A stretch of 64,000 bases of DNA from Minisyncoccia bacterium (GCA_049997875.1 JBEKRC010000004.1:8928-72927); one strand, 5' to 3'. Counted from the stretch's first letter, positions 111 through 16,946 are shown. The notes: generated from the sequence alone by a model not told the origin. Numbers and translations are program-made.

Positions 111-135
111 CCGCCGGGATGCAACTCCTCGGCGG
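111..135. terminator. GC hairpin (CCGCCG/CGGCGG) flanked by an A-run and a T-run; bidirectional intrinsic terminator, downstream of the minus-strand KH/rpsP genes
   Basis: Sequence shows inverted repeat ccgccg...cggcgg with aaaccaaaaa upstream and ctttt downstream; on the minus strand the stem is followed by TTTTTGG. Confidence 0.55.
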
Positions 136-171
136 CTTTTGTGCGAAAGTGTTATACGTTGCGCGTATAGC

Positions 172-501
172 TTAGTACCCGTCGCGAGTCGCTTCCGGTC
201 TTCCTTCGCCTCTCGGTCGTTCGGTCCTCGGAGGCCTTGTGCTCCCTTCCGGCTCTTCAATCTTCAGATTCACGCGGGCGTTGTTCTTGACGCCGACGAT
301 CCTCAAAAGCGAGCGGATGGCCTTCGCGGTCGCGCCCTGACGGCCGACCACCTGGCCCATGTCCATCGCGTTCACGCGAAGGGAGAGCAAAACGCCCATT
401 TCGTCAACCTTTCGGTCAACCTTCACGTCCTCCGGATGGTCCACGAGAGACTTCACCAGATACTCAAGGAATTCCTGATCTGCAGTAGATGAATTCGCCA
501 T
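172..501 (-). CDS. KH-domain RNA-binding protein (KhpA/YlqC-like) with Arg/Glu-rich C-terminal tail
   Basis: 109-aa ORF; the VGxxIGRQGxTAKAIR-like KH motif (VVGRQGATAKAIRSLL) is present; it lies immediately downstream of rpsP, the conserved rpsP-KH arrangement. Confidence 0.75.
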   Translation of the reverse strand: MANSSTADQEFLEYLVKSLVDHPEDVKVDRKVDEMGVLLSLRVNAMDMGQVVGRQGATAKAIRSLLRIVGVKNNARVNLKIEEPEGSTRPPRTERPRGEGRPEATRDGY

Positions 502-998: not shown

Positions 999-1703
999 CT
1001 ATCGCGCTTCCGTGCGATCGCGCAACTTTCCCAAAAGGTATGTCGCGTATTCCCTCCCGCCAAGGCCGAAGGCCAAACCGCCCGCCAGGGCAAGCATCGC
1101 GATGAATCCCGTCACAATGCTTTGGATGATAGAAACCGCAATCTCTAGCTGCGTAAGCGCCGCAAGGAACCCGAAGATCACGATCGCCCACCACGTGAGC
1201 GTCCCCAAGAAGTGCGCCGCGTGGAGCTTTGCGCTCAAAACCGACGCCATCACGACCCGCCGCATGAAATGCCCCACGACCACCGCCGCGAGCATGATGA
1301 GCACCGCCGCGATCACGTTCGGAATATACGTGAGCACCGCGCCCAAGAAGTTTGAGAGTGCGTAGAGGCCCAGGCTGCCGCACACCGCAAGCAGAAACGC
1401 AATCACAATGAACCAGTAGACCAGGCGGCCGAGGAAATACGATCCCCGAAGGCGCAGGCCGGCGCGTTCAAAATAGGGCCTCAGACCAAGCTTTTGAAGA
1501 AACGTGTCCAGGCGAAGCGCTTCAAAGATCTTTTCCACGAGCGCTCCCAGCGCTGCGGCGACGATAAGGCCGAGGATAAGAACGATGATTGCTCCGATCA
1601 GGTTCGGCACAAAGCTCGCGAATTGGAGCCATACGCTCTGGAGCGACACCACCACAAACTCCGTCCAACTCTGTATTATCATTATTTCATGACAAACCCC
1701 CAA
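999..1703 (-). CDS. Polytopic membrane protein, conserved-TM-helix-repeat / small mechanosensitive channel-like
   Basis: 234 aa with multiple hydrophobic helices (IGAIIVLILGLIVAAALGALVEKIF...) and repeated helix modules; no catalytic motifs. Confidence 0.5.
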   Translation of the reverse strand: MGVCHEIMIIQSWTEFVVVSLQSVWLQFASFVPNLIGAIIVLILGLIVAAALGALVEKIFEALRLDTFLQKLGLRPYFERAGLRLRGSYFLGRLVYWFIVIAFLLAVCGSLGLYALSNFLGAVLTYIPNVIAAVLIMLAAVVVGHFMRRVVMASVLSAKLHAAHFLGTLTWWAIVIFGFLAALTQLEIAVSIIQSIVTGFIAMLALAGGLAFGLGGREYATYLLGKLRDRTEAR

Positions 1704-1747
1704 AACTGTCGACCTTTAGGCTACCCTATTATTATAACCGATTCAGC

Positions 1748-2440
1748 CTAGCCGGCTGTGGATGACGCAAGGGCTCGGTCAATCACCGCTTTAAAGTCAT
1801 CAAAGCCGTTCGGATTCGGAATCTGCGTCCGATTTAGGAAGAAGGTCGGTGTGTGGTCAATGGAAGCAGCGTTCCCGCTTGCCACATCGGCAGCAATCTT
1901 ATCCGTCACCTTGGTTGTATTGATGTCCTGGTTAAACTTATTCACGTCCAAACCGAGCGAGGCAGCGTAGCCGTCAAAATATTGGCCCACGACTGCGTCC
2001 GGCGATGCGGCCACCCACTCGCTTTGTTTTTGATACAGCACGCCGTGCATCTCCCAATATTTTCCCTGAAGCCCTGCCGCTTCCGCCGCCTGTGAGGAAA
2101 TCTGCGCATCGGGGTGAATGGAATACAATGGAAAATTCCTGAATGCGAAAAGGACCGTGCTGCTGAAATTCTGCACAAGCTGGCTCATGATCGGCGCCCA
2201 TTCGGCACATGCCGGGCATTCATAGTCGGCATATTCAATCACGGTCACGCTTGCTTTCGGATTGCCGCGCGTCCAGTCGGAAGACGCGATCGCGGGCACC
2301 GTGGTCGCCACGAATCCCTTGGGAGTTGAACTGCTGTTTGATCCCGTAGAAAATCCGCCGGACAAGACACCCGCCACAATCACGACCGCTACCGCGAGCG
2401 CCACAAACCCAATGATGAACCAAAGTGTGATTTTATCCAT
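1748..2440 (-). CDS. DsbA-like thiol:disulfide oxidoreductase, membrane-anchored
   Basis: N-terminal TM segment (ITLWFIIGFVALAVAVVIVAGVL), thioredoxin-fold CPAC active site (YECPACAEW) and DsbA-like C-terminal region; the ATG at 2440 is chosen (MDKITLW). Confidence 0.75.
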   Translation of the reverse strand: MDKITLWFIIGFVALAVAVVIVAGVLSGGFSTGSNSSSTPKGFVATTVPAIASSDWTRGNPKASVTVIEYADYECPACAEWAPIMSQLVQNFSSTVLFAFRNFPLYSIHPDAQISSQAAEAAGLQGKYWEMHGVLYQKQSEWVAASPDAVVGQYFDGYAASLGLDVNKFNQDINTTKVTDKIAADVASGNAASIDHTPTFFLNRTQIPNPNGFDDFKAVIDRALASSTAG

Positions 2441-8223: not shown

Positions 8224-8634
8224 TTAGAGCCCTCCCCCAAAATTCCCCAAATTCCCCACCTCATTTAATGACGACTGGACCAGCTGCTGCGTCCACACGA
8301 TCAAAAGCCACATCATGACAACCGTTGAGATTCCCATAAGCACGGAGGCGATGATGCCGATCTGTTTCGCATTTTCATCGTCGGATCTGATATATTTGAC
8401 CCCCGGCCAATAATGTAACGCCAGGAACGCGATCCACGGCATAACAATGCTCAACGCATAAATCCATGCCTGCGTTGCCGCCGTCGTGGAAAGTGGTTTC
8501 TCTTTGAGCGCCCCTCCGCAGTTCGGACAAAAATAAAATTCCGGCTGCACCGGCTGATGGCACGCGGGACAGATAGACAGGCGTGCATCTGGTGCTTGCG
8601 TCACCGGAGAAATTGGCACAGGGATGTTCTCCAT
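8224..8634 (-). CDS. Hypothetical zinc-ribbon membrane protein
   Basis: N-terminal CPACHQP...CPNCGG zinc-ribbon followed by two TM helices. Confidence 0.45.
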   Translation of the reverse strand: MENIPVPISPVTQAPDARLSICPACHQPVQPEFYFCPNCGGALKEKPLSTTAATQAWIYALSIVMPWIAFLALHYWPGVKYIRSDDENAKQIGIIASVLMGISTVVMMWLLIVWTQQLVQSSLNEVGNLGNFGGGL

Positions 8635-8643
8635 ACCTTTATT

Positions 8644-9486
8644 TTAGCATCTGTAGGAATTTATCAACCTTTCCAATATTTCCTTTTTCTCCAAAGATTC
8701 TTTCCAAACACTGTTTGAACGTAATCCATTTATACAAACGCCGTCCGAAAAATTTATGACATCTCTAAATCTCAAAAGATCGGCTCTCCGTGAAATACAG
8801 AGTTCATAAAATCGCGCTTCCATCCGGCTCGCGATGCCGAGGTCGGCAAGCAATTCCTTCACTAACTGCAAAATTTCTAAAGAATGCTGGTATCCGCGGA
8901 CGATCCGTTTTCTTGGAGTAAACGTAACGTTGCCTTCGTCGTCATAAAAGGCTTTCAAAAATGCGGTCTTCTCCTCATAAGAACCGCCACGGATATAACT
9001 TAAAAGTTCTCTGACTTTCTGTCTCAAAAACGCTGCAATTTCAACATGATGATAGCTCACCCTCAACACGCCATCTGGCTTCCTGAGCAATTTATAATCA
9101 GAAACTCCCAGGACTGTATCCATAAGCGAGATGACGTTATTTACCAGTGTTCGGCTCCGATTGTTGTAAATAGATGAAACCCGCGAAATTTCTCCATCAA
9201 ACATAAAATGAGCCACCAAACCAACAAAGGCCGCATTCCATTCCAATGGCACCCGGTAAGAATACGGCTTTACAGATTTACCACGCCTCCCGTCGGTTAA
9301 TGTTTTCTGCTTGGCGCGATTGATGGCGAGGAGTCTTCCTTTAAGATAGTTGGACTTTGCTAAATTTTTTATGTGATAAAATGCGGTTGACTTGGGAATG
9401 TTCGTTTCGGTGATAATTTCACCCAAGGTGAAACCTTGCTGCCGAAGTAATTTTATTCTTTCAATGGTTTCAGCGCTCTGCTTCAT
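8644..9486 (-). CDS. LAGLIDADG-type homing-endonuclease-like protein with N-terminal HTH domain
   Basis: Two LAGLIDADG-like motifs (FVGLVAHFMFDGEIS and FLKAFYDDEGNV) and an N-terminal HTH (GFTLGEIITETNIPKSTAFYHIKNL). The ATG at 9486 is 1 nt from the tRNA-Lys 3' end; lower GC than the backbone. Confidence 0.55.
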   Translation of the reverse strand: MKQSAETIERIKLLRQQGFTLGEIITETNIPKSTAFYHIKNLAKSNYLKGRLLAINRAKQKTLTDGRRGKSVKPYSYRVPLEWNAAFVGLVAHFMFDGEISRVSSIYNNRSRTLVNNVISLMDTVLGVSDYKLLRKPDGVLRVSYHHVEIAAFLRQKVRELLSYIRGGSYEEKTAFLKAFYDDEGNVTFTPRKRIVRGYQHSLEILQLVKELLADLGIASRMEARFYELCISRRADLLRFRDVINFSDGVCINGLRSNSVWKESLEKKEILERLINSYRC

Positions 9487-9487
9487 G

Positions 9488-9560
9488 TGCCCCCACTAGG
9501 ACTCGAACCTAGGACCATCTCGTTAAAAGCGAGCTGCTCTGCCAACTGAGCTATGGGGGC
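9488..9560 (-). tRNA. tRNA-Lys (anticodon UUU)
   Basis: Hand-folded cloverleaf: acceptor GCCCCCA/TGGGGGC, D-arm GCTC-AGTTGGCA-GAGC, anticodon loop CTTTTAA, T-arm CTAGG-TTCGAGT-CCTAG, discriminator A; 73 nt; CCA not encoded. Confidence 0.85.
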
Positions 9561-9658
9561 GATCACATTAAATCATTCGTTATTATAAAGAAAAACAGTG
9601 CGGATTTCAATGTGTGGAGCACGGACGACATTTTGTATCGCACTATTCATGCCGCCCC

Positions 9659-10408
9659 TTAGACATCAATCTCAAGCAGAATCGGCAGATGGTCGGAATA
9701 TTTTGTCTTAGGAATGCGGGAGGAGAGGACTTTTACGTCCTTTGTGGCAAAAACATAATCAAGGCGCCAGCGGAGTTTGGTTTCCCTGAATCCGCGGTAG
9801 TCAAACGGCTTCGTCGTCCATGTGTTCTCGCGGAAATCCGGACCACAGTGCTTGAGGTATCTTTGAATGTTCTCAATGGTATAAGAACGAGGGGATGCAT
9901 TGAGATCTCCCGTGAAAATAAAATTCCTTTTCTTCCGCCTAAGGATGCTGAGAAGCGCATCGGCTTCTTTCCGCTTTGCGGGTGTTGTGACGAAACGTTT
10001 TGTATAAGAGGTATGCGTCGTGCCCACGACAAGCGCGCGCTTTCCCGGCACGGCAACCCTCACTTCTCCATATATTCGTCCCAAGGTTGAATAATTTCCT
10101 GTATAGGGCATTTCCTTTTGGACATGTCGGGAAAATACGGCTTTAATTGGGAACCGACTGAAAATCCCATTGCCGAACGGAAATTGTTCTCCTTTTTCGT
10201 TCGGCTGTTTTTGAGCAGGAAAGAAGGCGTAATAAAAATGCAGTTCATTCGCTATTTTTTTCGGAACATCTTCGTACTTGTTCCATTTTCCGCCCACCAC
10301 AAGCTCCTGAAAACAAGCAATGTCGGGATTCACTTTCTTGACGAATCGTATAATGTTTCCTACACCTTCCTCATTCCAAACATTCCACTGCAATATCTTT
10401 ATATGCAT
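9659..10408 (-). CDS. Endonuclease/exonuclease/phosphatase (EEP) family protein
   Basis: N-terminal IKILQWNVW and C-terminal SDHLPI motifs typical of the EEP fold; 249 aa. Confidence 0.7.
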   Translation of the reverse strand: MHIKILQWNVWNEEGVGNIIRFVKKVNPDIACFQELVVGGKWNKYEDVPKKIANELHFYYAFFPAQKQPNEKGEQFPFGNGIFSRFPIKAVFSRHVQKEMPYTGNYSTLGRIYGEVRVAVPGKRALVVGTTHTSYTKRFVTTPAKRKEADALLSILRRKKRNFIFTGDLNASPRSYTIENIQRYLKHCGPDFRENTWTTKPFDYRGFRETKLRWRLDYVFATKDVKVLSSRIPKTKYSDHLPILLEIDV

Positions 10409-10462
10409 GAGAAAATAATATCACGTTCGTACTGGTTCCGATATCCAGAAATCCGGACATTG

Positions 10463-11023
10463 TCAGCGCAACCAATACTCATATAAAATCACCAGCGAAA
10501 AAAGAAATACTAAAAACTCTGCAATTGCGTAAGGGTGAAATCTTAGGTAAATGTTTTTAATCCAATCTTTATCGCCGTAGTGCACTGAGAGACGCCGGAC
10601 ATCTTCCCCGCTCCATACGTAGAGTGTTTTTGCGGGTAGTTTGTTTCTTGAAATATCGTACTGATAGAAAAACGCATAGTAGTTTTGTGACAATGGATAG
10701 AACCACCGAACGCCCCATCCGAGCCCGATTGAATCATGAAGAAAATGCAAAAATGTCGTTATCGCAAATAGTGCGGCCCATCGGTAATCAAAAAAAGAAA
10801 TGATGATCGTTCCAATGGGAATGAATAACAGCGGATAATGAAACAAATCGCGATGTTCATGCGCCCTTGCGGTAGTCCCCTTTTTCAGTGTGAAGAGAAA
10901 ATCAAAGTCGGGCAGGAGGGAAAATAAAATGCCGCCTGCGAGAAAAATCGGCGTGAACGCGATTCCAAAAAATCGGCCTAAGAAAACTGATGCGAAAATG
11001 CCTACCCCTATGTCCAGCGGCAC
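10463..11023 (-). CDS. Membrane-bound metal-dependent hydrolase (YdjM/DUF457-like)
   Basis: Polytopic membrane protein with HEHRDLFHYP and FLHFLHDS histidine clusters characteristic of the family. Confidence 0.5.
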   Translation of the reverse strand: MPLDIGVGIFASVFLGRFFGIAFTPIFLAGGILFSLLPDFDFLFTLKKGTTARAHEHRDLFHYPLLFIPIGTIIISFFDYRWAALFAITTFLHFLHDSIGLGWGVRWFYPLSQNYYAFFYQYDISRNKLPAKTLYVWSGEDVRRLSVHYGDKDWIKNIYLRFHPYAIAEFLVFLFSLVILYEYWLR

Positions 11024-11050
11024 GGTTTTATTATAGATCCTTTTAACGTC

Positions 11051-12202: not shown

Positions 12203-13246
12203 TTAATACGTAATGACCTCTTGGGTCTGCGTAATCTTATCTATATGCATGAATCCGGTTGCGAGCAAGATCTCGTAGACAATAAGCGATGCGAACTCAG
12301 CAACCCAAACGAATGCAATGCCGATACTGCGGAGGATGAAAAATAAAATGATGGCCCACACCGCAATAAATTGGGTTTGAAAATGGTCCCGCAACCCGAC
12401 GAGTGTGGCGACGAGGTAGTCGTACGCCACGTCGCTCACCGTTTCATCGGGTGCCGGCGCTATTTTGGTCGTCTGCGCCACGCTCGCCGTCAATTGCGCC
12501 GCGGCCTGCGCGACCGTCTTATTCTGCTCCGATTGGTTTAGCGATCCGAACGCCGGATTTTGCGCGAGCTCCGTCCTCGCAATGTTCTCCGCAAATGTCC
12601 CGAAGGAACCCGCGAGCGGAACATTGGGGTAGAAACCATTCACCACGCCCGCGGCCCAATCAAAGAATACGTGAAAATCCCCGCGCGCCACGAATACCGG
12701 TTGCCCCTGACTCTCCGCCTGCGGCACGTACACAAGAATCATGACCAAAACGAGGGCTGTCACCACCTTCCCCAACACGCTTCGCGCTATCCTAAAGAAT
12801 TGGACCTCAATGCTGCCGCGCAGCGCCGAACGGCTCGCGAAATATCCCCAGAGGAGCACCGCGAACGCGACGAGTCCCGCGATGCCGGCGATCAACCAGC
12901 TGTCGTAAAACAAAAAGCACGCGATAAGCGCCACTGATTCCCCAAAAATAACGAGTGTCCGCCGCCCAATTCCCTTTGCAAGAAAAACCTGCAATGCGGA
13001 ACATGCGGAGAAAAGGAGAAACGCGGCGAAGAGATACCACGGCGAGGAAGCGACGGAAAGATAACGGAAATAGAACCAGCCGAAACAGAGCGCGGAGGCG
13101 ATGCTCAAGAAATCAATTACAATGGACCGCCAAAATCCTTCCGTTCCCGCAGAGGACGATACCTTATTGGGATTGATCAGGTTTTGGCTCTGGTTTTGGC
13201 TCTGGGTTCTCGGTCCCGTGAGCGTCGCCGGATTGATTTCCATCAT
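12203..13246 (-). CDS. Hypothetical polytopic membrane protein inserted between dnaK and dnaJ
   Basis: 347-aa ORF with 6 or more TM helices. The track ORF overlaps the dnaK 3' end by 83 nt, so the true start is probably downstream at a non-ATG codon; N-terminal QSQNQSQN low-complexity stretch. Confidence 0.5.
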
Positions 13247-15062
13247 TCTTATTATAGAACGCCTGGCCGATTTTTTGAATCTCGGCCGAAAGCGACGCTG
13301 TGGCCGACTGGATCGCCGCCATGTCTTCCCCCTCCTCTGCCTTTTTGAGTGCCGTGAGCTTTTCCGCCACGCCGCCTTTCACATCGGCCGGCAATTTATC
13401 GCCCGCGTCCTTCAATGCTTTCTCCGTCGTGTAGATGAGCGATTCTGCCTGGTTGCGCGCCTCAACTAATTCCCTCTTTTTGGCATCCTCGGCTGCGTGC
13501 TCGGTTGCTTCTTTCTTTAATTTCTCAATTTCGTCCTTTGAAAGGTTTGTGGACGCCTGGATCTTCACCGATTGCGTCTTGCCGGTCGCTTTGTCCTTAG
13601 CGGAGACGTTCAGAATGCCGTTCGCGTCAATATCAAACGTGACCTCAATCTGCGGCATGCCGCGCGGGGAAGGCGGAATGCCATCCAGCATGAAGCGCGC
13701 GAGTGTTTTGTTATCTCCCGCCATCGGGCGTTCGCCTTGCACCACGTGCACTTCCACGGATGTCTGATTGTCCGCGGCTGTGCTGAAAATCTGCGTCTTC
13801 GCGGTCGGCACCGTCGTATTCTTTTGGATCATGGGCGTCGCGACCGCGCCGTACGTTTCAATTGCGAGCGTGAGCGGCGTCACGTCCAAGAGCAAAATAT
13901 CTTTCACGTCGCCCTGCAGAATGCCTGCCTGTACCGCCGCCCCTGCTGCCACTACTTCGTCAGGATTGATCCCTTGGTGCGGATCCTTCCCAAAAAGTTT
14001 TTTCACCGCATCCTGCATTGCGGGCATCCGCGTCTGCCCGCCCACCAAAATCACTTCGTTGATGTCCCCCATTTTGAACCCGGCGCCCTTCGGCGCGGGC
14101 GATGTGACGGTCTCATTTGTCAACTGGATGGACCGGTCAATATACTTCTGTACGAGCGATTCCAGTTTCGCGCGCGAAAGTTTCATCAGGAAGTGCTTCG
14201 GGCCGTTCGCATCGGAGCTGATATACGGCAGATTGATCTCGGTTTCCACCGCCGTTGAAAGTTCGTGTTTCGCCTTTTCGGCCGCCTCCTTCAGGCGCTG
14301 GAGCGCAAGCGGGTCCTTTGAAATATCAATCCCCTCCTGCTTTTTATATTCCACGACGAGATATTGCTGGATTTCTTTGTCAAAATCGTCGCCGCCCAAG
14401 TGCGTGTCGCCACCGGTCGCTTTCACCTCCACAACATCGTCGCCCACCTCAAGCACGGAAATATCAAATGTCCCGCCGCCAAAATCGTAGACGACGATCT
14501 TTTCGCTTTTCTGCTTGTTCAAACCATACGCAAGCGCCGCCGCCGTCGGCTCGTTGATGATGCGGCGCACCTTGAGGCCCGCAATCTCGCCCGCATTCTT
14601 CGTTGCTTGCCGCTGCGAGTCGTCAAAATACGCCGGCACCGTGATCACGGCCTCTTCTACCTTCTCGCCAAGCTTCGCTTCCGCGTCGGCTTTCAATTTG
14701 CCAAGGATAAACGCGGAGATCTCTTCCGGCGAATACCACTTGTCGCCCATTTTCACTTCCACGCCGCCGGTCGCACTCGCCTGGATATCGTACGGAAGCC
14801 ACGCCTTATCCCGTTGCACCTCGGGGTCGGTAAATTTCCGTCCCATCAGGCGCTTCACCGAAAAGATGGTATTCTTCGGGTTCGTCACCGATTGCCGCTT
14901 CGCGAGCAACCCCACCAATCGTTCGTTTGATTTTGAGAGCGCCACGATGGAGGGCGTCGTCCGATTTCCTTCCACATTTTCCAGAATGCGCGGCTCGCCG
15001 CCCTCGGTCACCGCGACCGCGGAGTTCGTCGTCCCCAAGTCAATTCCCAAAATTTTCGCCAT
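13164..15062 (-). CDS. dnaK: Molecular chaperone DnaK (Hsp70)
   Basis: [26 protein letters not shown] and the remaining Hsp70 signatures; 632 aa. Confidence 0.97.
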
Positions 15063-15068
15063 TGTTTT

Positions 15069-15764
15069 TTATTTTATTAATTTTTTCAAATAGTTAATGG
15101 GCCGACAAATACCCATATTGGCGGGGATATCTGCAAATTTGGATTGGTTAGCGGGATCAGTTTGCACTCGGCTAGAGATTCTTCCACTCACAATACCGAT
15201 AACTTCGCCGGTTGATTTCGAAAATAACGGCGATCCGCTTGAGCCACTGTTAGTGTGTGTGTCAATCATAAAGAAATGCAACGACTTATCTTGCATCCGC
15301 CTTTTTATCGAACTGACTATGCAATGGTTCGCACTCATTGTGATTCCAAATCCCATTGCTAAAAGCTCTGTGGCTAAGGGATATCCCATAAACAGAAGCT
15401 CATCGCCCTCTCTAACTTTTTCCGAATCACCGATTTTCTCTACTGGGATGAAGTTGTCTTTTCCCTTTATTTTCATAACAGCAATGTCGTTTTCTTCGTC
15501 GAGCCTAACGACCTCAATGTCAACCTTCTTATAATAAGTAATTGCGTCTTCTACTCGATCTATCACTTGTGCACTCAAATACTGCCGCTGATTTTCAGGG
15601 ATCTCTTTGTAAACATGTGCATTAGTAATGAACGTACCATCCTTCAAAACAATGAAACCAGTTCCGCGGATACTCAGCTGGGCTTGGTTATTCGAACCCG
15701 GAATAACTAACTGCAGAAGGATGATTGCCTTGCTATTATTTTCGATAATTTTTGAGTTTTCCAT
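15069..15764 (-). CDS. Cytoplasmic trypsin-like (S1/Trypsin_2) serine protease
   Basis: Catalytic triad in order: His (TNAHV), Asp (NDIAVMKI), Ser (TNSGSSGSPLF, GDSGGP-like); no signal peptide; strongly AT-rich versus the flanking dnaK and grpE. Confidence 0.65.
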   Translation of the reverse strand: MENSKIIENNSKAIILLQLVIPGSNNQAQLSIRGTGFIVLKDGTFITNAHVYKEIPENQRQYLSAQVIDRVEDAITYYKKVDIEVVRLDEENDIAVMKIKGKDNFIPVEKIGDSEKVREGDELLFMGYPLATELLAMGFGITMSANHCIVSSIKRRMQDKSLHFFMIDTHTNSGSSGSPLFSKSTGEVIGIVSGRISSRVQTDPANQSKFADIPANMGICRPINYLKKLIK

Positions 15765-15769
15765 AGTTT

Positions 15770-16387
15770 TTACGTTTTATTTCTTATTTTCAATTTATTT
15801 CTCGACCTAGTAAGTAATTCCCTTTTTGTCCAGCCAACGAAGCCTTCGGGACCGTATCTTTCAATCTTCACAACTTGCTGAGAATCTAGTAAAAACAGGA
15901 ATGGGGCTGGTTTATTATTGTTATTGTTCAAAAAATTATTGGCAATCTCATCAAAATCGGAAAGAAGAGCAAATACCCCCAAATTTATTGCTATGCTAGA
16001 AGGGAAAAAATCAGTCAGTTTATCAATATAGGCATTAGTGCTCGAACCGGTATCTACAATCTGTATTGATTTTCCTATAAAGCTTTCTTTTATCGTACCA
16101 GCATGAATTTCTTTAATATTTGGCGCAGGAATAAAAAATTTTGCGTTGCTGCTAAGTTGGAATCTTAGGGTTGATGTGTGGATTCTATCAAAATAGGGGG
16201 TTGAAAGCACGCCCGAGTGGTTCTCGGCCGCTAATAAAGGCAAACAATCGATCGTGTACCCTGCCGCGGGGATGCAACGAAGACAATATTCGCTACTTGA
16301 ATCAAAATTACGTTCAAACGAGCCTAACCGCAGTTGCGTTACATACTTTTCTACAATTTTTAATTTTCTCTGACGAAAATCTTCCAT
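15770..16387 (-). CDS. Hypothetical CxxC protein, possibly thioredoxin-fold
   Basis: 205 aa; an N-terminal YCLRC (CxxC) motif preceded by F-x-SSSE, and a C-terminal FLFLLDSQQVVKIERYGPEGFVGW resembling the redoxin beta-strand region; AT-rich; abuts the protease gene. Confidence 0.35.
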   Translation of the reverse strand: MEDFRQRKLKIVEKYVTQLRLGSFERNFDSSSEYCLRCIPAAGYTIDCLPLLAAENHSGVLSTPYFDRIHTSTLRFQLSSNAKFFIPAPNIKEIHAGTIKESFIGKSIQIVDTGSSTNAYIDKLTDFFPSSIAINLGVFALLSDFDEIANNFLNNNNNKPAPFLFLLDSQQVVKIERYGPEGFVGWTKRELLTRSRNKLKIRNKT

Positions 16388-16388
16388 A

Positions 16389-16946
16389 TTATTTCTGCTT
16401 GCTTATAATCACGCGCGCGGCCCGCAATACCTTGTCATGTAATTTGTATCCGGGCTCTATCTCTTCCACGATCGCCCCGGGCGATTGTTCCGATTCCACT
16501 TCGGTCATCGCCTCGGCGACCGCCGGGTCAAACGGATCGCCCGGCTTAATAATTATCTTCGTAAGTCCGCGCTTTTTCAGAATGTCTTCTATCTGCGACC
16601 GAATAAGATACACTCCCTTATCCACCGTCCCATTCTTTTCCAGCGCACGGAGCCCGAGGTCAAAATTATCCAGCACCGTAATAAAGTCTCTTATAAGATC
16701 TATACTTCCGTACTGCGCCACTTCCTGCAGATGCGCGAATTCCTCTTTTTTGTAATTGATAAAGTCCGCCTTCGCGCGCTGCCATCCGGCAAGATATTCA
16801 TTCTTTTCATCATTACATTTTTGTAACTGTTCTTTGTAAAACTCATTAACAACTTCCCATTCCTCTTTTCCTTCTTTGGGGATTGAGCTGCAATTTTGTT
16901 TATAAAACTCAGCAAATGTTAACTTATCTTTGTTCTCTTCCGCCAT
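16389..16946 (-). CDS. grpE: Nucleotide exchange factor GrpE
   Basis: 185 aa with GrpE core LAGWQRAKADFINYKKE...VLDNFDLGL...IEPGYKLHDKVLRAARV. Confidence 0.85.
   Translation of the reverse strand: MAEENKDKLTFAEFYKQNCSSIPKEGKEEWEVVNEFYKEQLQKCNDEKNEYLAGWQRAKADFINYKKEEFAHLQEVAQYGSIDLIRDFITVLDNFDLGLRALEKNGTVDKGVYLIRSQIEDILKKRGLTKIIIKPGDPFDPAVAEAMTEVESEQSPGAIVEEIEPGYKLHDKVLRAARVIISKQK

Follow-up and report, generated by a model that had tools for sequence, protein, structure and literature searches.

How is a protein gene expressed, and how does it come to lie where it does, when its start codon stands a single nucleotide beyond the end of a tRNA gene? The question was raised by a locus in a 64,000-nucleotide (nt) stretch of DNA from a Minisyncoccia bacterium (GCA_049997875.1 JBEKRC010000004.1:8928-72927; "the window" below means this whole stretch), in which an open reading frame (ORF) for a protein with a helix-turn-helix (HTH) domain and two LAGLIDADG motifs follows tRNA-Lys(UUU) on the same strand. 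The ORF, called the endonuclease gene here, is probably a free-standing homing-endonuclease gene that is expressed by way of tRNA processing and homes into tRNA-Lys loci where the gene is absent. The features at the junction were as follows.

9488..9560, minus strand: tRNA-Lys(UUU) (Rfam RF00005, 69.3 bits), 73 nt, intronless, no encoded CCA
9487..9487, minus strand: single C (C74-like position) between discriminator and ATG; the 3'-processing cut is proposed before or after C9487
8644..9486, minus strand: free-standing HTH plus double-LAGLIDADG endonuclease gene, 280 amino acids (aa), stop codon TAA at 8644..8646

The same tRNA was called by ARAGORN at 9487..9560 on the minus strand. Its acceptor stem has 7 bp (GCCCCCA/TGGGGGC), and the junction on the minus strand consists in order of TGGGGGC, the discriminator A9488, C9487 and the ATG at 9486..9484. 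An earlier reading made from the window alone (the sequence-only reading) had placed the start codon 1 nt beyond the discriminator on the same strand; the Rfam boundary and the sequence agreed with this in every detail, and a spacer of 1 nt indeed gives no room for a ribosome-binding site. Upstream of the ATG, an in-frame TAG lies within the tRNA at 9496..9498. A start further downstream was considered and rejected: the first further ATG is codon 95, and M1 and the N-terminal 20 residues are conserved. Gene callers gave the same ORF in 19 public-assembly contigs, and the same tRNA-Lys/endonuclease arrangement recurred in the window species, in 19 contigs drawn from several samples, with peat and bog among the sources (Ga0187885_10000105 and Ga0427942_001464 are examples).

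The arrangement was not confined to this species. A protein search returned 198 relatives, nearly all of about 280 aa and without exception of Patescibacteria-type origin. When one genome was scanned for each species, 105 relatives were obtained, from which 80 loci (designated by L numbers) were kept; 79 were informative, L080 being cut by a contig end. An intact tRNA-Lys(UUU) lay at most 86 nt upstream on the same strand in 68/80 loci, and once 12 apparent exceptions had been reassessed, tRNA-Lys(UUU) adjoined the endonuclease gene in 79/79 informative loci. Among 69 related loci in which ARAGORN detected an intronless tRNA-Lys on the same strand and upstream of the gene, the spacing was 1 nt in 35 and at most 4 nt in 47 (36/70 and 48/70 junctions with the window included), showing that the juxtaposition is far beyond chance and is a trait of the family. 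With the window counted, the spacer between discriminator and start codon was 0 nt in one case, 1 nt in 36, 2-4 nt in 11, 6-14 nt in 10 (mostly U-rich) and 22-34 nt in 10; spacers of 52, 86 and 887 nt (the last in L029) occurred once each. The base in the 1-nt spacer was C in 34 of the 36 cases. In a set of 1.84 billion representative proteins, the family amounted to 93 clusters at E<=1e-30; it spans two or three phyla, at least Patescibacteria and Omnitrophota. It is a small, uncurated, previously undescribed family with an HTH domain and a predicted I-DmoI-like core, and its members always lie beside tRNA-Lys(UUU). The tRNAs themselves showed some peculiarities: many of the loci L014-L074 had a C1-G72 first acceptor pair (CCGCCC...GGGCGG), and several of these genes had an unusual T-loop, GGATCGT, with A rather than T at position 54.

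The encoded protein had the domains that the sequence-only reading had assigned to it, an N-terminal HTH and a double LAGLIDADG core. The catalytic Asp and Glu were present. Both motifs proved genuine, and the HTH was matched weakly.

9340..9456, minus strand: N-terminal HTH domain, aa 11-49, weak matches to several HTH Pfam models
9193..9219, minus strand: LAGLIDADG motif 1, L90-G98, LVAHFMFDG, codon of catalytic D97 at 9196..9198
8932..8961, minus strand: LAGLIDADG motif 2, F176-G185, FLKAFYDDEG, codon of catalytic E184 at 8935..8937

Pfam LAGLIDADG_3 matched the second half only (aa 171-244; 6.1e-8, 33.2 bits against a cut-off of 22.5). The AlphaFold model, built on 24 homologues (mean predicted local distance difference test score, pLDDT, 90.8), had a three-helix N-terminal domain, a flexible linker at aa 67-72 and two alpha-beta-beta-alpha-beta-beta-alpha units. 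In it D97 is the final residue of helix 85-97 and E184 that of helix 170-184, which is the canonical catalytic position at the ends of both LAGLIDADG helices. Foldseek matched both halves to the intein endonuclease of TliVMA, I-DmoI and PI-PfuI (E 1e-7 to 1e-8), the I-DmoI match spanning about 180 columns and the whole target; WhiA (3hyi, 8dy7) and the bI3 maturase ranked lower. A profile search of PDB sequences also found I-DmoI and aligned E184 with its catalytic E117. For the HTH, the HTH repeat of PDB 2lvs matched at E 1.2e-4, and the model has three helices at aa 5-39. Among 79 homologues, D97 and G98 were each retained in 78 and E184, G185 and Q200 in all; a C-terminal tail, NxRxNSxWK, was conserved as well. 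An identical protein in NCBI is annotated "LAGLIDADG family homing endonuclease", and no NCBIfam family model was found for it. The predicted fold and the acid-Gly helix ends both fit a monomeric double-motif member of the LAGLIDADG superfamily. The sequence-only reading had held that an active enzyme could not be told from a domesticated one by sequence; the conserved catalytic acids inform more than it assumed.

The gene's position after the tRNA bears on how it is expressed. One further feature was needed here.

9582..9610, minus strand: sigma-70-type promoter, TTGAAA-17 nt-TATAAT, 11/12 consensus matches, the best in the region

This promoter ended 21 nt upstream of tRNA-Lys and was the sole promoter-like site for the tRNA and the ORF; promoter, tRNA and ORF lie on one strand, with no -10 box between tRNA and ORF. 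A promoter within the tRNA 3' end that fires at the ATG was rejected: positions -12 to -7 are TAGTGG, GC-rich and with no TAnnnT. The endonuclease gene, with neither promoter nor ribosome-binding site of its own, would be transcribed from the tRNA-Lys promoter at 9582..9610. CCA-less bacterial tRNAs are matured by RNase Z, which leaves the trailer with a 5' phosphate, and leaderless initiation can take place at a terminal AUG that is 5'-phosphorylated. The full CCA was encoded in only 8/46 other tRNAs of these genomes; C or CA usually followed the discriminator, and C stood there in 56/69 tRNA-Lys genes and in most of the other tRNAs. Because CCA is rarely encoded, tRNA 3' ends would need a cut at this position and then CCA addition. 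An RNase Z-type endonucleolytic 3' maturation would cut at or beside C9487, and since the tRNA is CCA-less and the ORF lies 1 nt beyond it, the cut that finishes the tRNA would also make a message that begins (C)AUG with a 5' phosphate. This message would then be translated leaderless, probably the normal mode in this genome. The endonuclease mRNA is most likely leaderless or nearly so, released by 3' maturation of a tRNA-mRNA precursor.

Start sites elsewhere in the family and in the window were consistent with such a mode of initiation. In loci with spacers of 22-34 nt, a TAnnnT -10 box stood 6-9 nt before the start in 8/10 cases (TAyAAT in six), and in L029, with its 887-nt spacer, TGATATAAT stood 6 nt before the endonuclease start. 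A -10 box 6-9 nt ahead has the geometry expected of leaderless mRNAs made by transcription initiation. Within the window, TAnnnT occurred 5-9 nt before the start in 21/63 candidate genes; internal ATGs, taken as a control, had it in 2.4% of cases (binomial p about 1e-18). There was no enrichment of Shine-Dalgarno (SD) cores in the window (6/63 genes against 11.6% in the control). Most initiation in this genome appears to be leaderless or SD-independent. Housekeeping genes also abutted tRNAs: the gene for ribosomal protein bL25 started 0-4 nt after tRNA-Lys in L114, L160 and L082 and 27 nt after it in L152 (metagenome contigs with the same tRNA-Lys type), and that for peptidyl-tRNA hydrolase (Pth) started 3 nt after tRNA-Phe in L082 and L101; the Pfam profiles begin at residue 2 in bL25 and at residue 8 in Pth. 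In these bacteria, placing an ORF against a tRNA may be a general layout for expression. In the literature searched we found neither a bacterial leaderless mRNA made by tRNA processing nor leaderless mRNAs in Patescibacteria, which is no proof of absence.

The same gene could instead be translated from an uncut precursor, with ribosomes starting internally in an SD-independent manner, or tRNA maturation and translation could use different transcripts. The want of SD enrichment means that SD-independent internal initiation must exist for operon genes in the window, and the U-rich 6-14 nt spacers of some family members are longer than the 0-4 nt seen in others. Against this, the AUG is 1 nt from a stable, GC-rich acceptor helix of 7 bp, which would hinder 30S binding; most loci with room for one show a -10 box at the leaderless distance; and the tRNA, having no encoded CCA, must be cut exactly there to function. 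We regard translation from an uncut precursor as improbable and retain release by tRNA maturation.

The presence of the gene among relatives was patchy. A metagenome scan was carried out with a pattern that describes the 5' part of tRNA-Lys genes of this type and does not select for the endonuclease; the gene was present in 6/80 of the tRNA-Lys loci found, which corresponded to three sequence types. When dnaJ lay upstream, 32/34 loci were without the gene, and 27 of these 32 had at least 300 nt of sequence downstream. Gene-less loci L125, L133/L081, L083 and L088/L118/L138 had 71-75% identity to the window in DnaJ and about 82% in DnaK, compared with 70 and 86%, respectively, in L001, the closest genome with the gene; L092 and L122 were also gene-less at comparable DnaJ and DnaK identity. 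The endonuclease gene is an accessory gene, patchy among close relatives that share the dnaJ-tRNA-Lys synteny. The sequence-only reading would have been contradicted by a gene order common to all relatives; relatives of the same synteny were mostly without the gene, which supports mobility. The sharpest comparison was between L119, with the gene, and L115 and L127, without it: the tRNAs were 100% identical and the dnaJ ends 99% identical, and homology between L119 and L115 stopped right after "AC" at the tRNA 3' end, so that the left boundary is exactly the tRNA 3' end. L119 (in the oriented copy) also had two further ORFs, one for a GIY-YIG nuclease at 133..390, between dnaJ and tRNA-Lys, the other for an IS200-like Y1 transposase at 1565..2239, after the endonuclease gene; its sister contig L115 had none of the three. 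Immunity of gene-less loci through a variant tRNA allele was rejected, as the L119 and L115 tRNAs are identical and those of L121 and L088 differ by only 2 nt.

In the mechanism that we propose, the endonuclease protein would cut tRNA-Lys loci that lack the gene, and recombinational repair would copy the gene in (intronless homing); between homing events, the gene would be inherited vertically and frequently lost. A leaderless mRNA and an insertion at the tRNA 3' flank had been offered by the sequence-only reading as alternatives. Comparison favoured the two operating together over either one alone.

Where synonymous substitutions were unsaturated, the ratio of nonsynonymous to synonymous substitution rates (dN/dS) of the endonuclease gene was 0.06-0.2, showing purifying selection. 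Nonsense codons were present in 3/79 copies (TGA at the invariant Trp83 in L025, TAG in L073 and TAA in L074), which are possibly decaying copies or sequencing errors.

Several results weigh against homing coupled to tRNA processing. Pairwise endonuclease identity was correlated with DnaK identity (r=0.63, Mantel p about 0.001). An old gene, handed down mainly by vertical descent and lost many times, would suit the data too, because its divergence tracks DnaK and the window species has the same arrangement in its 19 contigs. The 3/79 nonsense copies, the sporadic distribution and the occurrence in two or three phyla could reflect rounds of invasion, decay and loss, but divergence follows DnaK, and most of the history may have been vertical. 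A scan of viral contigs gave no homologue of the endonuclease, and a phage origin was rejected as no relative was found there. The HxHxDH motif of RNase Z was absent from window ORFs of at least 150 aa, a search that covered the 64-kb window only. Identical tRNA-Lys alleles occurred with and without the gene, and a target wholly inside the tRNA would for that reason be self-destructive in the intronless majority; the site that we propose would span the tRNA 3' end and the downstream sequence and be interrupted by the endonuclease ORF itself, which is a guess. Taken together, the data are consistent with a homing-endonuclease gene for which vertical inheritance is the rule, loss is frequent and gain is occasional.

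Vertical descent and constraint are also what a domesticated protein would show, that is, an immobile LAGLIDADG DNA-binding regulator of the host or a factor of the tRNA locus, kept by its dependence on the tRNA promoter. The low dN/dS, the correlation with DnaK, the stable length of about 280 aa, the conserved HTH and the fixed arrangement in the window species agree with it, and the transcription factor WhiA (DUF199), one of the fold matches, in which an HTH is joined to a double-LAGLIDADG scaffold, shows that this combination can be domesticated. The published WhiA structure reportedly has a C-terminal HTH and has lost the catalytic acids, and WhiA is said to be a core gene. In contrast to the acid loss, C-terminal HTH and near-universal presence of the WhiA type, the family described here had invariant catalytic acids and neighbouring Gln/Arg residues, an N-terminal HTH and the patchy distribution of an accessory gene. 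Most close relatives of the same synteny were without the gene, its GC content was below that of the host, nonsense copies occurred, and the family is tiny relative to the diversity of the phylum. We consider domestication unlikely and a homing endonuclease the better description.

Since its linkage to the gene is universal, the tRNA-Lys locus would be the address of the endonuclease, and the HTH might hold the protein to the side of the conserved tRNA. Partial tRNA-Lys copies were found within about 100-400 nt of the intact gene in the gene-less loci L133/L081, L083, L092, L099, L122, L125 and L138; the 3' halves began in the anticodon loop, and one 5' half ended there. L133/L081 also had an HTH_17 excisionase-like ORF. 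The tRNA-Lys locus is, by these remnants, a probable hot spot of recombination, and the 3' halves could have been left behind by integrase elements or by breaks that an endonuclease induced. Direct repeats of the tRNA 3' end around the segment, which the sequence-only reading had suggested looking for, were absent from the window, and downstream of the endonuclease gene in 69 loci no tRNA repeat exceeded shuffled controls; an att-flanked island was rejected for the window on this account. In L041, the endonuclease stop codon was followed by 17 nt that repeat the tRNA-Lys 3' end with 1 mismatch, GATCCCC(G/T)CCAGGCCCT, so that tRNA 3'-end repeats bracket the gene in this lineage only.

These remnants bear on a further alternative, in which the endonuclease gene is passive cargo, merely the first gene of an integrase-type island that uses tRNA-Lys as attB. 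The 3'-half remnants in gene-less relatives, the excisionase-like ORF of L133/L081, the IS200-like transposase and GIY-YIG ORF of L119 and the 17-nt repeat of L041 would all suit an island. Set against them are the absence of a downstream tRNA repeat above shuffled controls in the window and the main group, and the core genes that follow the endonuclease gene in both the window and L001 (those for the Zn-ribbon protein, rnhB, rpmF, nusB, rnc and smc). Only the endonuclease is conserved across loci, its neighbours not, and its distance from the tRNA is fixed to the nucleotide. In the loci that were inspected, no integrase was noticed among the ORFs listed beside the gene, although no dedicated integrase search was made. 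Carriage by an island is quite improbable on this evidence.

Some relatives of the gene lay beside tRNA-Lys genes with introns. The tRNA-Lys of the window had no intron by Rfam, and the endonuclease ORF is not intron-encoded. Three intron-containing genes were located as follows.

L041, 4090..4360: intron-containing tRNA-Lys, group I intron
L076, 1413..1700: intron-containing tRNA-Lys, group I intron
L077, minus strand: intron-containing tRNA-Lys, group I intron

In L041 and L076, tRNA-Lys(UUU) contained a group I intron after position 34 and the endonuclease gene started 9-11 nt beyond the tRNA; in L077 the intron-containing tRNA-Lys(UUU) was divergently oriented, with the intron on the minus strand. 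The introns after position 34 were 197-244 nt long. In seven further loci (L028, L038, L043, L058, L069, L073 and L078), labelled Omnitrophota or Planctomycetota and including one single-cell genome, the gene order was rpsB-tsf-pyrH-frr, endonuclease, tRNA-Lys(UUU), with the tRNA about 50 nt downstream of the endonuclease gene. In-silico splicing recovered a group I intron of 258-316 nt after position 33 in 6/7 of these; in L038, the splicing script did not recover the intron, and Rfam gave a group I intron match of 101.7 bits. Such intron-containing tRNA-Lys genes, which were missed by ARAGORN, occur in Patescibacteria as well as in the genomes labelled Omnitrophota or Planctomycetota. In all ten loci the intron was ORF-less and the endonuclease gene lay directly outside the tRNA; in relatives, the Rfam intron model was fully matched outside the ORF. 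In three Omnitrophota-type loci, the endonuclease ORF was preceded by a repeat of the tRNA 5' half, 28-34 nt long and ending in the anticodon loop. A half-tRNA of this kind fits a break at the intron insertion site and could serve as a left homology arm. A survey of Patescibacteria tRNA introns (2026) described introns in tRNA-Asn and tRNA-Asp and HNH genes; "tRNALys" and "Lys" were absent from the text.

The intron-bearing loci suggest one more role, that of a splicing maturase for the group I intron of tRNA-Lys rather than a DNA endonuclease. Ten relatives adjoin a tRNA-Lys with an ORF-less intron, and the bI3 maturase is among the fold matches; but tRNA-Lys is intronless in the window and at 68 other loci, and the catalytic residues are invariant. 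A maturase function is highly improbable, and a DNA endonuclease remains our reading of the protein.

Known systems resemble parts of this arrangement. Like I-DmoI and the intein or intron LAGLIDADG_3 enzymes PI-PfuI and TliVMA, the protein is predicted to be a monomer with two acid-Gly helices (D97-G98 and E184-G185) and the same two-domain fold, with Foldseek template modelling (TM) scores of about 0.65-0.70 on the target. Unlike I-DmoI, it is encoded outside an intron or intein and has an extra N-terminal HTH and a C-terminal tail, and identity is only 16-20%. With free-standing homing endonucleases it shares a position next to, not inside, a conserved gene and a patchy distribution among close relatives; phage T4 Seg/Mob is a case of intronless homing, and F-CphI with the psbA intron and mobE with I-TevIII are cases of collaborative or trans homing (PMC3984707, PMC2790892, PMC6083498). 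In collaborative homing, the enzyme is free-standing and cuts alleles without the intron at the position where the intron inserts (PMC3984707); the corresponding arrangement was seen in the 10 related loci with introns, while the tRNA-Lys of the window is intronless. The known free-standing cases are GIY-YIG, HNH or Endo VII-like enzymes of phage genomes, whereas here a predicted LAGLIDADG enzyme is found in the cellular genomes of ultra-small bacteria, linked to one tRNA gene across phyla and with its start codon fused to the tRNA end. LAGLIDADG enzymes of rRNA insertions, and group I introns in tRNA genes, have been reported from Patescibacteria (PMC11270868, PMC13011429), the same phylum and superfamily with tRNA anticodon-loop intron sites, but those endonucleases are encoded inside the rRNA insertions. 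For the proposed leaderless release, the closest known analogue would be mitochondrial tRNA punctuation (PMC12242768, PMC6924987), in which a tRNA likewise abuts a same-strand ORF with 0-1 nt between them. The difference is that the release is predicted here from sequence, and that the genome otherwise uses -10 boxes 6-8 nt before its starts.

Free-standing homing endonucleases, collaborative homing and leaderless mRNAs are thus known, and the tRNA-Lys(UUU)-linked LAGLIDADG and HTH family is previously undescribed. No link between tRNA-Lys and LAGLIDADG proteins was described in the literature searched, which again does not prove absence. To our knowledge, free-standing LAGLIDADG homing endonucleases in cellular bacterial genomes have been little studied, and we know of none tied to a single tRNA gene across phyla. 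A wider proposal, which we put forward tentatively and with less than even confidence, is that Patescibacteria, perhaps with Omnitrophota, regularly use tRNA excision to make leaderless mRNAs, a bacterial tRNA punctuation, and that a LAGLIDADG lineage has specialised on tRNA-Lys(UUU) both as its homing address (with half-tRNAs as homology arms in some lineages) and as its sole source of expression signals. Should transcript mapping confirm the release by tRNA maturation, tRNA-punctuated gene expression in bacteria would come into view. If the model of the endonuclease gene holds, it would be a selfish gene stripped of its own expression signals and dependent on the transcription and maturation of a tRNA; leaderless expression punctuated by tRNAs would be indicated for a large uncultured phylum, the bL25 and Pth genes having the same layout, and gene callers and operon models would need adjusting. 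The loci would also display intermediate stages in the long-debated coming together of a free-standing endonuclease with a group I intron that lacks an ORF, the gene standing behind an intact tRNA, behind a tRNA with an intron, or between a half-tRNA and a tRNA with an intron. The enzymes themselves would add new long-site nucleases whose target class is conserved and can be predicted.

The genes on either side of the tRNA and endonuclease gene were as follows.

8224..8634, minus strand: Zn-ribbon membrane protein gene, a neighbour and not part of the element; own -10-like TAAAAT at 8641..8646, 6 nt before the ATG
9659..10408, minus strand: EEP-family gene (Exo_endo_phos), Pfam 1.2e-24; own TATTAT 6 nt before the ATG
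10463..11023, minus strand: YdjM-family membrane protein gene, Pfam 3.8e-11; own TATAAT 6 nt before the GTG start

The TAAAAT of the Zn-ribbon gene overlaps the endonuclease stop codon, and this gene also follows the endonuclease gene in L001. Pfam bore out the EEP nuclease/phosphatase and the YdjM-like hydrolase that the sequence-only reading had recognised upstream of the tRNA. Its grouping of both with the endonuclease gene in a single islet did not hold: neither had a homologue in the 80 related loci, both are on the upstream side of the tRNA, and a separate -10 box precedes each. A GNAT acetyltransferase gene sits between dnaJ and the tRNA in L001 and in L125. The dnaJ-tRNA spacer is a second variable spot, and EEP plus YdjM is a species-specific insertion there, not part of the endonuclease element.

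The GC content of the three genes was lower than that of the flanking genes, as first noted from the sequence (endonuclease 0.42, EEP 0.45 and YdjM 0.43, compared with 0.55 in rnhB and 0.575 in dnaJ). A recent arrival is not what this offset marks. Endonuclease GC was below that of its flanks in 79/79 loci, by 9.4 points on average, yet it tracked host GC, and several other genes of the window were equally low. Recent transfer was rejected as the cause of the low GC in view of this family-wide offset and of grpE (0.45), a trypsin-like peptidase gene (0.41) and others, including an ORF of 205 aa (0.38) in the hrcA-grpE-dnaK cluster (15069..16946).

Some minor observations were made along the window and in related loci. 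An EEP-family gene, 22% identical to the EEP protein of the window, lay 3 nt after tRNA-Lys in L134; EEP genes may recur at tRNA-Lys too. Examples of -10-like boxes in the window were those at 11030..11035, 10415..10420 and 8641..8646, and others lay upstream of 16946, 17700, 34511/35485 and 35523. In 15069..16946, grpE is separated from dnaK by two low-GC genes, the trypsin-like peptidase gene and the 205-aa ORF, patches within a core chaperone cluster. An ORF at 12203..13246 (347 aa, a membrane protein) overlaps the stop region of dnaK (13164..15062) by 83 nt when read from its first ATG; some public calls give this ORF 301 aa, and its true start is probably further downstream.

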